This document shows positions 56,044-64,000 of a stretch of 64,000 nucleotides of DNA, one piece after another (position 1 is the stretch's first letter; each line of letters opens with the position of its first letter). Source of the stretch: Gemmatimonadales bacterium. Its GTDB lineage: Bacteria; Gemmatimonadota; Gemmatimonadetes; Gemmatimonadales; GWC2-71-9. The stretch spans positions 2,658 through 66,657 of the forward strand of contig JBBSCB010000002.1 of the NCBI GenBank assembly GCA_038250675.1, in the 5' to 3' direction. Both the position numbers and the translations under genes were made by a program. Below the pieces are notes generated by a model. The model ran no database searches, was not told the DNA's origin, and worked only from the letters and a program-made list of their open reading frames with translations.

Positions 56044-57411
56044 TTATGGAGCCGCGTGCGGAGTAATCTGCAATCCGTAATAATCTGCTGCCGTCGTGTA
56101 GTTGAACCACACGACCGCGAGGTAGTACGTTCCGGGATCGAGCGTTACGGTACCCGACTCGGTGGCGCCGCCGCCGCCGGCGTCGACAAAGTCGCTCAGC
56201 CCGGTCATGGTGTTGTCGTAGATGTAGACGCCGAGATCGGAGCCGCTGCCGACGAACGGGATGCTGATATCCAGGTCCGTCTTCTCGACCAGGGTGATCT
56301 GGAAGAGCTGGGCCGTGCCGCCGAAGCCGCCCGCGTCCGGCGCGCCGAACGGAGCGCCACTCACAACACCCACTGTGTGGCCGTCGGCGATCGAGAGCGT
56401 GGGAGCCGTGCCAAAGGCGTCGGTGCCCGCGACAGCGGTCGCCGGACCCGCGCCGGCCGTTACAGTCAGGCCGGTCGGGAGCGGACCCAGCGCGAATCCG
56501 TTACCCGCGGCGCCGGTGATCACAAGTGCGCCGCTGCTGCCCGGGGTGGGTACGAACGTCAGCGTCGAGCTGTCGGCGGCGCTTCCGATCGTGACGGCGT
56601 CGGCCCCTCCGACGGTCACCGTCGCGCTCGGCGACACCTTGAAGCCGACGCCAGTCAGCACCACGCTCTGGCCTGACGCAGGTGCGGCGGTGCTCAAGGT
56701 GCCGCTGAATGCGGTCGGGGCCGGCAGCGAAACGGTGGACGTCGTCGGCACCGTGAACGTCAGCGGTGGATTGGCCCGGATGCCCACATTGGACACCGTC
56801 GCGATTCCGTTCGTCCCCGGCTGTACCAGGAACGAGATGGACGAACTATCAGCCGCCAGTGCGGTGACGATCGCATTGGACACGCCCGGGAAGGAAACGA
56901 CCGACGTGGGGCGGAAGAACGTGCCCGCTGGTGCGGTCAGAACGACAGCCTCGCCGATTGCCGGTGTCCCGGTCGACGCCGTCGTCGGGAGGGTCACGGG
57001 CGTTGAGGTGACCGTGATCGTCGTCGTCAGCCCGCCAGCCGTAACATCGAACGTTGACGTCGCGTAACCAGTCGCAGCGACAAAGAATCGGGTGCTGGAG
57101 GCCCCGGTTGGCTGCACCAGGTTGCCGGCGGCATCGTACACCAGGGTCTGTGACGTATCCTGATGGACGCTGAAGCTGGCACTGGCTGGCGTCGTAAAGG
57201 TAAACGCGCCCGCCGGCACCGGATTGTCGTTGGCGTCGCGGAGCTGCACCGACACCGCTTCGGAGTCGCCCTGCGCGATGAAGAGTGTCTGCGGACTCGC
57301 CACGAGCTTGGTGGCGATTCCTGTCGTGCTGGGAACAGTCGGATCGCTCTTGCATCCCCAGACCAGCGCGGGAATTGCGAGCAGGAGCATTGAACGTGTC
57401 CATTGCTTCAT
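56044..57411 (-). CDS. Lipoprotein with Ig-like (Big/IPT-type) repeats and a PPC-like C-terminal domain
   Basis: Start MKQWTRSMLLLAIPALVWGCKSD (lipobox). Repeated Thr/Ser/Val/Ala beta-sandwich-like segments. C-terminus DLGVYIYDNT...GTVTLDPGTYYLAVVWFNYT resembles pre-peptidase C-terminal domains. Confidence 0.55.
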   Translation of the reverse strand: MKQWTRSMLLLAIPALVWGCKSDPTVPSTTGIATKLVASPQTLFIAQGDSEAVSVQLRDANDNPVPAGAFTFTTPASASFSVHQDTSQTLVYDAAGNLVQPTGASSTRFFVAATGYATSTFDVTAGGLTTTITVTSTPVTLPTTASTGTPAIGEAVVLTAPAGTFFRPTSVVSFPGVSNAIVTALAADSSSISFLVQPGTNGIATVSNVGIRANPPLTFTVPTTSTVSLPAPTAFSGTLSTAAPASGQSVVLTGVGFKVSPSATVTVGGADAVTIGSAADSSTLTFVPTPGSSGALVITGAAGNGFALGPLPTGLTVTAGAGPATAVAGTDAFGTAPTLSIADGHTVGVVSGAPFGAPDAGGFGGTAQLFQITLVEKTDLDISIPFVGSGSDLGVYIYDNTMTGLSDFVDAGGGGATESGTVTLDPGTYYLAVVWFNYTTAADYYGLQITPHAAP

Positions 57412-57565
57412 AACGAGCACCTCGAGTTGGGACTGGAAACGAGGGACCGGAATCCCCAGTGATACCGCCACGGCCGAAGCCACCCACCTGTACACCTGAA
57501 CCGCCTGCTAATGTCGCATCGCGGCGCCCGGACTCCAAGGGGTGGCATTCCGCCGGCCCACGGCC

Positions 57566-63400: not shown

Positions 63401-64000
63401 CCCGCGAAGAACGGCGGGCTGAAGATAGCTGGGTCGAAGGTCCACCCGGCAAACTTGCTGAACGACTGCTCGTAGGTAAAGCCGAGCGCGAAGGGCAGGT
63501 TGACCGACGCGTAGTTGACGTTGGCGTTGGCGACATCGTCATCCCGCGCGAACGCCGCATACAGGCTGTTGATCGTGTAGCCGGCGGCCGGCAGCGTCAC
63601 ACCGAAGGCCGCATCGTTCTGGGCATGAAACGCCTGGGCCTGCTGCAGCAGGATCGGCTGCATGTCCGGCCGCGCCGACGCATAGTCCGCCGCGTTGGTG
63701 GACGTGATGTTGTAGAACGTGTACACGAAGTACAGGATGTCTTCGTTGCCGCTCGGGAAGTTCCAGCCCATGCCGCGGGTCTCGACCAGCACCCCCAGCG
63801 GGTGGGAACGTCCGGCGTTCTGATTGGGGTTGCCCTCCCAGCTCAGAAACCAGACATCACCCTGCGAGGCCGCGATCCGGCCCTGCAGCAGCGGGTGATA
63901 CAGGCCCGCCGTCGCATCGCCGAGCGGCACCTTGGCCGCGGCCGGCCAGTTGGCCGCGTCATCCGGGTTCTGCGAGTTGAAGATCGGCTGCACTTCCTGG
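60415..64000 (-). CDS. Large secreted protein with T9SS-type C-terminal sorting domain (5' end outside window)
   Basis: More than 1190 aa, with the frame open to the window edge. The body has no recognised family. The last ~97 aa (VPDPYYVTSEFE...KIIKFVNLPNDAIIRIYSSSGVLVNIL...ASGVYFYHIESGDARRVGRFTIVNFAQ) fit the T9SS type-A / FlgD-Ig-like CTD pattern. Confidence 0.7.
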   Translation of the reverse strand, partial: QEVQPIFNSQNPDDAANWPAAAKVPLGDATAGLYHPLLQGRIAASQGDVWFLSWEGNPNQNAGRSHPLGVLVETRGMGWNFPSGNEDILYFVYTFYNITSTNAADYASARPDMQPILLQQAQAFHAQNDAAFGVTLPAAGYTINSLYAAFARDDDVANANVNYASVNLPFALGFTYEQSFSKFAGWTFDPAIFSPPFFAGAGFTGAKYLKSPSGPGQIQLFSNTTNGGAFNDARDTKQLFRYLSGTPSQAAGDQSCNNGDPTITRVCYVLNGTAFDMRFFQSSTPLDLAPGAFGSIVVAYIFAPPVITASVVPTSSLSVKPGDPLLLDPKTPAAATALATTGANVVDSLTGFRSWTDVNGDCASISPTSTVGCAQQNEFTVVPGSLLGKAKTAQAVFDGKFLLPFAPESPDFFLVPGDNQVTVLWRPTASETTGDPFFAIANAPTVIDPISGLPTANALYDPNYRQFDVEGYRIYRGRVDAPNALTMLAQFDYGGTSITDYAGQVNPSPTCAPELAVYTSGCPYDNPFPAPGSLGQARTKNVSVPLVGEITQAKLGERSKLATGAIIVLIADTALTGRGGSCAPSACPVLKDTGVPFVYVDKTVRNNFRYFYSVTAFDINSFQSGPSNLESPRLTKSVTPVAAASNYNVAGLVTGFSMTGRGVALDSGAPKPTLDPVTGIFSGPFPPANGWSIGLADFVATVLSQPGNFTVQQDSVQLGSAYDNVPVQYFYHVVGSSPNVIFSVPVLQGQELGPSSGAGQFAAVPIDQALAARFGGSNQFNLQGKITQSIDGTDYAGLYGRGCVNGRAGFDVGGGCSYNGARWFAGPSPQNNETMADPNGNDVANFSGDPMPNFSNAGALPGVVTIHETKAYQTVGGGEYRPTSGVLAGAFTSADYNVYWGAAGAVDSVIDAVHHISLPFDTAMGASWGILNAGDVPATGSYDTQLAISNTDFGCVYPLRGKYTVSMTCASTTVGAPIRLKRTAVPGPVIFADGGSLANFKTATPQPNNGFGMYLAGHIFTFELTGGAVPASGTVWSMRSYIGAITGGNGAGAGNLGPYAFDNPEGKRTLAAPGVQLAVQFDVTNKLVSTSRADLERVHTVPDPYYVTSEFEQTTDTKIIKFVNLPNDAIIRIYSSSGVLVNILEHHSNTFAGSEDWNVRNRNNQVVASGVYFYHIESGDARRVGRFTIVNFAQ

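Follow-up and report, generated by a model that had tools for sequence, protein, structure and literature searches.

A conserved outer-membrane gene cassette pairing a PorV/PorQ-family barrel with a large putative type IX secretion protein in Gemmatimonadales and distant bacterial lineages

Results

A conserved gene cassette at the end of the window

We analysed a 64,000-nt stretch of the genome of a Gemmatimonadales bacterium (hereafter, the window; G+C about 68%), at the end of which (56044–64000) lie four co-directional genes on the minus strand. An earlier note, made from the DNA letters, had listed these genes, and all four are present as open reading frames (ORFs). They encode a large secreted protein with a type IX secretion system (T9SS)-type C-terminal domain (CTD), an outer-membrane barrel of the PorV/PorQ family, a GWxTD-domain protein and a lipoprotein. 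These four genes are the visible part of a larger conserved outer-membrane gene cassette. A fifth gene, encoding a SusC-like TonB-dependent barrel, adjoins the CTD gene upstream, just past the window end. As predicted from sequence, the core of the cassette is a trio comprised of this SusC-like TonB barrel, the large CTD protein and a dedicated, PorQ-like barrel of the PorV family. Gemmatimonadales and KSB1-like lineages add one or more GWxTD proteins to the trio, and Gemmatimonadales further add the lipoprotein, which has an Ig/PPC layout. The features of the cluster are listed below (hidden Markov models are abbreviated HMM).

60415–64000, minus strand: middle member of the trio, encoding the large secreted CTD protein; ORF open to the window end
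63037–64000, minus strand: conserved N-terminal domain of this protein, residues ~31–450 (~130–450 within the window), from invariant columns; approximate boundaries
62077–62781, minus strand: FN3-like segment, residues ~536–770, from motifs and FN3 chains in Foldseek; approximate boundaries
60418–60711, minus strand: T9SS-type CTD, residues ~1226–1323, from near-threshold HMM scores and motifs
60374–60406, minus strand: GC-rich hairpin in the gap that separates the CTD gene from the barrel gene; fold −29.5 kcal/mol
60363–60368, minus strand: Shine-Dalgarno sequence AGGAGA, 6 nt 5' of the barrel ATG, read from the sequence
59235–60356, minus strand: PorV/PorQ-family outer-membrane beta-barrel, 373 amino acids, signal peptide; NF033709
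57566–59038, minus strand: GWxTD protein, 490 amino acids; TIGR04514 87.8 bits, PF20094 43.4 bits
56044–57411, minus strand: lipoprotein, 455 amino acids; lipobox VWGC, PF04151
55987–56020, minus strand: closing hairpin, 15 nested pairs and a 4-nt loop; fold −45.2 kcal/mol

Gene order was compared across Gemmatimonadota in a sample of one genome per species. The search gave 440 matches, of which the best 80 loci, with 82 gene copies, were analysed. Only copies with enough flanking sequence were counted in the neighbour frequencies, which were as follows.

TonB-type barrel immediately 5' of the CTD gene: 72/78 copies
PorV-like barrel immediately 3' of the CTD gene: 59/69 copies
GWxTD gene after the barrel: 56/57
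PPC lipoprotein after the GWxTD gene: 48/49

This clustering is far beyond chance. The earlier note had proposed synteny across genomes of the Fibrobacteres–Chlorobi–Bacteroidetes type as a check; in the related genomes compared here, the order CTD gene, barrel, GWxTD gene and lipoprotein is kept. Conservation differs along the cassette. The PorV/PorQ-family barrel is the most conserved gene of the cluster, with a median identity across loci of 68%, followed by the TonB barrel (57%), the CTD protein (55% over its whole length) and the GWxTD protein (45%). The lipoprotein is the least conserved (34%).

Copies lacking the barrel mostly belong to a second paralogue class, in which the TonB barrel still lies 5' of the CTD gene. 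Such pairs of TonB barrel and CTD protein were found at loci L047, L054, L060–L062, L068, L070, L076 and L082, with two CTD-protein copies each at L070 and L054. Some genomes hold the full cassette plus barrel-less pairs. The barrel-less paralogues retain the CTD at a median identity of 76%, and one further paralogue has the barrel without a GWxTD gene. The main copy of the CTD protein is highly conserved and constant in length.

The large secreted protein and its C-terminal domain

The reading frame of the CTD protein has no stop before the window end, and the window holds codons ~130–1323 of 1,323. The full gene was read from a contig with identical sequence (L001:461–4432). It encodes 1,323 amino acids with a signal peptide, in line with the secreted protein of more than 1190 residues that the earlier note had described. 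More than 1,160 full-length homologues were found at 55–78% identity, and none has a Pfam domain. Several orthologues are named "T9SS type A sorting domain-containing protein" by NCBI.

The N-terminal domain carries the invariant acidic residues D177, D216, D282/D284, D361 and D405-x-R407. Its invariant columns span proteins from Gemmatimonadota, Glassbacteria, KSB1, Calditrichota, WOR-3 and one unclassified bacterium. The FN3-like segment is marked by the motifs PxxP...W, EGYRIYRGR and RYFYSVTAFD. The CTD is the most conserved part of the protein, with a median identity of 78%, compared with 43–61% for the regions of the body. In the window protein it holds the motifs VPDPYY, IRIYSSSG, ASGVYFYHI and GRFTIVN; the elements VP(D/N)PY, SGvY and G(K/R)F are kept across homologues.

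The CTD of the window protein scored 21.9 bits against TIGR04183 (cut-off 23) and 12.7 bits against PF18962, while the CTD of the Glassbacteria homologue passed TIGR04183 at 25 bits. Against the type B model CHU_C (PF13585), the window CTD scored 23.7 bits, under the gathering cut-off of 27; the weak CHU_C match recurs in 34/35 homologues, none of them reported above the cut-off. The PorZ model NF052228 aligned at positions 686–744, its CTD, only (24.4 bits, cut-off 260). Of six lineages scanned against NCBIfam, five had PorZ's CTD as the best match of the CTD and the sixth, WOR-3, had none; PorZ was also the sole, weak match of the CTD-protein family profile in the PDB (E 0.18). The PorU HMM NF033707 aligned weakly to the CTD region, with E values from 0.022 in the window protein to 2e-4 in relatives. 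Searched with an HMM of the window CTD, neither the window nor 84 related loci yielded a further CTD protein.

No recognisable family had been seen in the body of the protein, and database searches bear this out. The body matched nothing in Pfam or NCBIfam, including a Pfam scan of 35 homologues at E <= 1. It had no match among PDB sequences with a single sequence, and with a profile none fell in the body. A structural model of residues 31–1230 was built with AlphaFold2 (AF2; pLDDT 86.4, pTM 0.73) and compared with the PDB by Foldseek, a check that the earlier note had suggested. The model matched FN3 domains, and no convincing fold match emerged for the protein. A likeness to the N-terminal beta-sandwich of GH94 and cyclic glucan synthases, as modelled, appears too weak to use. 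No gingipain-like or caspase-like fold was among the PDB matches of the model, and neither PorZ nor any other beta-propeller structure was among the best 50. The invariant cysteines all fall in five pairs, as expected for disulfides, and the multi-phylum alignment has no Cys or His conserved across phyla outside the CTD. Two identities considered for the protein were rejected on these grounds. A PorU-type sortase and a PorZ orthologue are excluded because nothing but the CTD aligns to the PorU and PorZ models, and because no gingipain fold, propeller or catalytic Cys/His was found in these comparisons.

The two outer-membrane barrels

The PorV/PorQ-family barrel passed the family model NF033709 with 141.8 bits over residues 37–371 (cut-off 90), and its relatives in other phyla passed it with 141–217 bits. 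Among the equivalog models, PorQ (NF033711) scored best, here and in most lineages, with 74.2 bits (cut-off 220). PorV (NF033710) reached 48.9 bits over the N-terminal half only (cut-off 250). The PorQ score exceeded the PorV score in every lineage scanned; in KSB1, PorQ about equalled PorV2. A Calditrichota relative scored 130.7 bits against the PorQ equivalog over its full length. The PorP/SprF model gave no match to the barrel in the NCBIfam scan. A PDB search with the single sequence returned one match, Flavobacterium johnsoniae PorV (6h3i_F, E 7.6e-5). With the family profile, the same chain was matched at 2e-27, and TodX/FadL-type channels weakly, at about 1e-3. Pfam assigned UPF0164 and, faintly, Toluene_X to the barrel and its relatives. 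The earlier note had held that a FadL/OmpP1 classification would overturn its assignment of the barrel. PorV is the best match, but the PorV family is itself a distant relative of FadL/TodX, and the comparison is no clean test.

In homologues on long contigs, the gene upstream of the CTD gene encodes an outer-membrane protein of about 1,100 amino acids, with CarboxypepD_reg, Plug and TonB-dependent barrel domains. The window organism's own copy is visible on the L001 contig as its last 124 residues, ending in ...EINF. Its product is a predicted TonB-dependent transporter, as tested on the orthologues, in which Pfam finds CarboxypepD_reg and Plug, and in some TonB_dep_Rec_b-barrel. The TonB barrel of the trio carries a TonB-box-like motif, LEAINVVS. 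A profile of its family matched FepA/PfeA in the PDB at 3e-21, along with Cir and PhuR (3e-21 or weaker); no PorF chain was found in that search. The SusC/RagA model TIGR04056 aligned with 27.9–54.7 bits (cut-off 368), over the N-terminal CarboxypepD_reg/plug part only. The window encodes a second barrel of TonB-dependent type at 47331–50705 (minus strand; CarboxypepD_reg and OMP_b-brl_4, 1,124 amino acids), which has no CTD-protein partner. TonB barrels of the trio from different phyla scored 118–592 summed bits to each other, compared with 51–119 to this unpaired barrel.

Distribution beyond Gemmatimonadota

A full HMMER scan with the barrel gave 6,206 cluster representatives. Relatives at 28–36% identity came from sources named as Glassbacteria, KSB1, Calditrichota, WOR-3, Hydrothermae, Poribacteria and Gemmatimonadota; none of the 30 barrel clusters sampled carried a Bacteroidota label. 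The gene contexts of seven barrel relatives were looked up. In six of them, from Glassbacteria, KSB1, Calditrichota, WOR-3 and two unclassified lineages, the order was again a TonB-type barrel, a Pfam-less protein of 629–1,191 amino acids and the barrel. Since the same order occurs in six distant lineages, the trio is older than Gemmatimonadota. Together with the 59/69 copies in Gemmatimonadota, and with the CTD and the barrel as the best-conserved elements, these contexts uphold the earlier note's proposal of a cognate pair formed by the CTD protein and the PorV-family barrel. The seventh context is a second PorV/PorQ-family type in Gemmatimonadota (L091:6151–10152, metagenome-assembled genome (MAG) GCA_033722155), 31% identical to the window barrel and located behind ExbB-ExbD-TonB. 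This is another link between a PorV-family barrel and genes of a TonB system.

The middle proteins of the trio are homologous over the N-terminal domain (WPxG...Y, D-x-D, D-x-R...GP), the FN3 segment (GY+VYR, YYY-V-A-D) and the CTD (VVPNPY...SGvY...GKF). Their variable region differs greatly in length between phyla, and the proteins range from 629 to 1,323 amino acids. Aligned across phyla, the middle protein diverges too far to serve in a metagenome scan.

The GWxTD family was followed separately, in 80 GWxTD-anchored metagenome loci collected with taxonomy unassigned. A PorV-family barrel lay directly 5' of the GWxTD gene in 18/50 loci with enough upstream sequence, and the full four-gene order was present in 9/20 loci with enough sequence. 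The remaining loci showed housekeeping neighbours only (SMC, DnaE, GatB, Pgi, NlpC/P60, EfeU, MacB) and no alternative partner. KSB1 has two full-length GWxTD homologues after the barrel. Because 18/50 loci are linked to the barrel and the rest lie in unrelated contexts, GWxTD is a broader family with a substantial subset linked to the trio. It had been suggested that the GWxTD protein belongs to the same surface pathway as the pair. Linkage in 56/57 Gemmatimonadales copies, in KSB1 and in 18/50 metagenome loci speaks for this, but the gene also occurs alone, in housekeeping contexts, and the suggestion may hold for the linked subset.

Tandem GWxTD pairs are common (metagenome loci L094, L095, L098–L100, L125, L143, L144 and L146) and occur both beside the trio (KSB1, L129, L151) and alone. 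In WOR-3, a clan-CD Peptidase_C11 protein of 645 amino acids is encoded directly after the barrel (L090:9056–10993); this enzyme could be a sortase-like partner. In Calditrichota, the barrel is followed by a 1,366-residue protein with a clear type A CTD (L089:9135–13235), then by a TPR protein and another CTD protein. Loci L005 and L068 and the cluster of P0348 are labelled as "Bacillota", "Acidobacteria" or "Actinobacteria" MAGs despite holding the cassette or barrel. These labels are probably binning or labelling errors, since the sequences are 48–77% identical to Gemmatimonadales or fall in Calditrichota clusters.

The GWxTD protein, the lipoprotein and non-coding elements

The GWxTD protein was correctly named in the earlier note, both models being passed well above their cut-offs (28 bits for TIGR04514 and 26.9 for PF20094). 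Behind its signal peptide come two beta-sandwiches of Ig-like type, followed by the GWxTD domain (roughly 57644–58102), which is helical/alpha-beta. Its AF2 model (pLDDT 92.1) matched structures by the tandem sandwiches only, for example RbmA at 4e-9. The GWxTD domain itself had no Foldseek match, and the GWxTD profile had none among PDB sequences. No mention of the family was found in the literature searched.

The lipoprotein had been described as a series of Ig-like repeats with a PPC-like C-terminus. The lipobox is present, and so is a C-terminal PPC domain (about 56113–56310; PF04151, 29 bits, cut-off 25.9). The middle region is repetitive and Ig/IPT-like by eye only; no model matched it, and the Ig part of the description stands on appearance.

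Between the CTD gene and the barrel gene, the earlier note had placed a 59-nt gap with a hairpin and a strong Shine-Dalgarno sequence. The gap is 58 nt long and AGGAGA is well placed, but the hairpin is no more stable than shuffled sequence (z = −1.45, not significant). The claim of a strong terminator behind the lipoprotein gene survives in part. The closing hairpin, which lies between convergent genes and includes a perfect inverted repeat of 13 bp on each side, is very stable (z = −6.3; 0/200 shuffles as stable). It lacks a clear U-tract and was missed by a consensus terminator scan, and it is probably a bidirectional terminator. The consensus scan for promoters and terminators returned nothing useful in general. 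The gaps between the barrel and the GWxTD gene (196 nt, 59039–59234) and between the GWxTD gene and the lipoprotein (154 nt, 57412–57565) are unusually long for gaps inside a cluster, which suggests internal promoters or regulatory elements.

T9SS and other genes in the window

One T9SS gene was found in the window outside the cluster:

38543–44605, minus strand: homologue of the T9SS outer-membrane translocon SprA/Sov, 2,020 amino acids; TIGR04189 490 bits

The protein passed the TIGR04189 equivalog model (cut-off 200) and scored 45.3 bits against Pfam SprA_N. Its gene lies about 11 kb from the cluster, with an M28 peptidase gene (37595–38542) directly 3' and divergent LptF/LptG genes (44683–47237) 5'. 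No T9SS genes besides sprA were found elsewhere in the window. SprA is not part of the cluster; it is the export route that the CTD implies. With the translocon at 38543–44605 and the TonB barrel gene outside the window, the module is not the self-contained one that the earlier note had thought possible.

Elsewhere on the minus strand, three adjacent genes of type II secretion or type IV pilus kind (32686–36908) encode two T2SSE ATPases, one with an MshEN domain, and a T2SSF platform protein. A single-module non-ribosomal peptide synthetase of 1,404 amino acids, with condensation, adenylation, carrier and thioesterase domains, is encoded at 15544–19758 (minus strand). It lies near an acyl-CoA ligase gene (20543–22438), beside genes of pentose-phosphate and sugar metabolism.

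Discussion

Herein, we describe how the products of the cassette may act together. Among T9SS proteins, two are known to retain the CTD: PorZ, which sits on PorQ, and PorU, which sits on PorV. The reading that we favour, tentatively and at a little short of an even chance, is that the large protein is exported by the T9SS and remains docked on a barrel dedicated to it, as the partner of an adjacent TonB-dependent transporter, in a role like that of SusD. The protein, which has a signal peptide, would cross the inner membrane by Sec. Recognition of its CTD would follow at the SprA translocon, jointly with the PorV-family barrel, as homology indicates; the sprA gene lies in the same window. Thereafter the CTD would hold the protein on its own barrel, in the manner of PorZ on PorQ and PorU on PorV; the PorZ-like CTD, the PorQ-like barrel and the top conservation of both suggest this step. 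The N-terminal domain would be displayed on the cell surface next to the TonB-dependent barrel. Gene linkage points to its most likely task: binding an extracellular ligand, possibly a glycan or glycolipid, and passing it to the transporter. In function, the large protein would then resemble a SusD-type or surface-lipoprotein partner, but be displayed by the T9SS. As for the GWxTD protein and the lipoprotein, both may be envelope accessories within this complex. A transporter partner is favoured by the TonB barrel's SusC-like features, by the multiplied pairs of barrel and partner and by the variable region of the partner.

The earlier note had seen the barrel as a shuttle for the cargo. A permanent anchor seems preferable to a transient shuttle because the barrel is nearer PorQ, the CTD is nearest the retained CTD of PorZ, and both are the best-conserved elements; scores and conservation suggest this outcome, which we infer from them. 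The shuttle reading, in which an ordinary T9SS cargo is carried transiently by a private PorV-type barrel and then released or handed over for attachment, appears to us quite unlikely. Type-B cargo proteins with adjacent PorP/SprF carriers offer a precedent, and the adjacency of CTD gene and barrel is conserved. F. johnsoniae PorV, the known carrier, is matched by the family profile, and the CTD has type-A hallmark motifs, including the C-terminal G-K/R-F-x-I/V, whose lysine contacts PorV in solved complexes (PMC10994853). Against these points stand the CTD itself, since top conservation is unusual for a disposable signal and it best matches CTDs that are retained, those of PorZ and PorU, and two features that a shuttle leaves unexplained: the TonB barrel upstream (72/78 copies and all six distant lineages) and the barrel-less paralogues that keep their CTD.

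A more serious alternative, although still a doubtful one, is that the trio is T9SS machinery, an operon counterpart of PorF, PorZ and PorQ that handles a surface glycolipid for cargo attachment. PorF of Porphyromonas gingivalis is a T9SS component like a TonB receptor or plug (PMC12704123), and its mutant groups with the porQ and porZ mutants in forming beige colonies and losing about 90% of gingipain activity (PMC12704123; PMC5445135). A machinery role also agrees with the PorZ-like CTD and PorQ-like barrel in nearly every lineage scanned, with the other T9SS-tailed proteins or the clan-CD C11 peptidase beside the trio in several loci, and with the high conservation and constant length of the main copy. 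The body of the protein argues against it, being unlike PorZ in the HMM and Foldseek comparisons, and the long strands of the AF2 model suggest sandwiches rather than propeller blades. The extra pairs of TonB barrel and CTD protein, the tandem copies in some loci and the variable region lengths form a pattern more typical of uptake loci than of core machinery. The readings as transporter partner and as a PorF/PorZ/PorQ module may converge if PorF, PorZ and PorQ descend from such a trio. It is unlikely, yet conceivable, that the cassette is the ancestral operon form of a T9SS surface module that was dispersed in Bacteroidota as porF, porZ and porQ, with the TonB barrel physically coupled to a PorQ-docked CTD protein and GWxTD as a further component. 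Two other explanations have less in their favour. The barrel could be a FadL/TodX-type channel for hydrophobic uptake working with the TonB transporter, and the CTD a mere Ig-like fold with no role in T9SS, which we consider improbable. The weak profile matches to TodX/FadL channels, the UPF0164 and Toluene_X assignments, the other Gemmatimonadota barrel beside ExbB-ExbD-TonB and the below-cut-off CTD score of the window protein are in keeping with it. PorV is by far the better PDB match, however, the PorV/PorQ family cut-off is passed widely, the Glassbacteria CTD passes TIGR04183, several orthologues bear T9SS type A sorting-domain names at NCBI, and SprA is encoded in the window. Least probable by far is that the pair is a divergent PorU-PorV and the large protein the T9SS sortase. 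In Bacteroidota, porU is encoded just upstream of porV, and the gene order, size (~1,200–1,300 amino acids), signal peptide and C-terminal CTD correspond, as does the weak alignment of the PorU HMM to the CTD region. That model never matches at the peptidase core, the invariant cysteines are all paired, no cross-phylum Cys or His lies outside the CTD, and the confident AF2 model has no gingipain-like or caspase-like match, so that the sortase reading is already effectively refuted.

Several observations weigh against the docked transporter partner as well. The CTD of the window protein scores just under the curated cut-offs. The barrel scores below the equivalog cut-offs of PorQ and PorV, so "PorQ-like" denotes only a ranking of scores. 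This barrel might be the organism's only, general PorV. No ligand-binding or catalytic fold is recognisable in the body, and the ligand-capture role is drawn from linkage. Likewise, the physical contacts proposed within the complex are read from linkage, scores and conservation. The 80 Gemmatimonadota loci, as the best of the 440 matches, are biased toward close relatives. The barrel is absent 3' in 10/69 copies and the TonB barrel absent 5' in 6/78. Finally, the second Gemmatimonadota barrel type occurs in a different context, after ExbB-ExbD-TonB and then a 186-residue CarboxypepD_reg protein.

The pairing of a barrel with a CTD protein is already known from PorQ-PorZ, PorV-PorU and SprF-SprB. 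The cassette shares with the P. gingivalis attachment complex (PorQ-PorZ/PorV-PorU) a PorV/PorQ-family barrel and a large surface CTD protein; its barrel scores closest to PorQ, and its CTD is closest to that of PorZ, then to that of PorU, both retained CTDs. It differs in the body of the CTD protein, which lacks both PorZ's double beta-propeller and PorU's C25 peptidase, in PorQ and PorV equivalog scores below the cut-offs, and in gene arrangement: P. gingivalis has porQ and porZ at scattered sites, but here the genes are adjacent and a TonB barrel gene precedes them. PorF (PG0534) is likewise a plug-containing, TonB-type barrel tied to late steps of T9SS, and here such a barrel is tied genetically to a PorQ-like barrel and a PorZ-like CTD. 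The barrels of the cassette are larger (975–1,153 amino acids) and have a SusC-like CarboxypepD_reg N-terminus, the likeness to PorF being one of description. As in SusCD, RagAB and BtuB-BtuG, the gene for a SusC-like TonB barrel (CarboxypepD_reg, TonB-box-like motif, Plug) is followed by a gene for a surface partner, and pairs of barrel and partner are multiplied as paralogues in some genomes. Unlike in those systems, the partner is a T9SS-tailed protein of 630–1,320 amino acids with its own anchor barrel, not a SusD-like lipoprotein, and the SusC/RagA model matches the N-terminal part only (27.9 versus 368 bits). In sprB-sprF of F. johnsoniae, a type-B cargo with its PorP/SprF-type barrel, the cognate barrel is also encoded directly 3' of the CTD protein, and the type-B CHU_C model gives its weak match in 34/35 homologues here. 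The barrel of the cassette is of the PorV/PorQ family, however, CHU_C stays below its cut-off and the CTD has type-A motifs.

What is new here is the fixed linkage of the pair to a TonB barrel and to GWxTD proteins, and its spread across phyla other than Bacteroidota. Work on type IX secretion has, to our knowledge, been confined almost wholly to Bacteroidota. The literature that we searched says next to nothing on T9SS in Gemmatimonadota, and we found no account of the cassette there (under GWxTD, T9SS in Gemmatimonadota and T9SS in the other phyla). The SprA translocon gene is now placed in a Gemmatimonadales genome, and the trio, with the GWxTD proteins that often follow it, is a concrete set of partners that bears on the role of PorF, on the pairing of barrels with CTD proteins and on the GWxTD family. 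If the large protein is a docked transporter partner, the cassette would represent a new kind of surface display for a TonB partner, by T9SS instead of lipoprotein export. If the trio is machinery, it would supply a missing piece of the T9SS attachment machinery. If it is the ancestral form of porF, porZ and porQ, the late, attachment stage of T9SS would be coupled to TonB-type energy or transport, and the roles of PorF and GWxTD would become directly testable.

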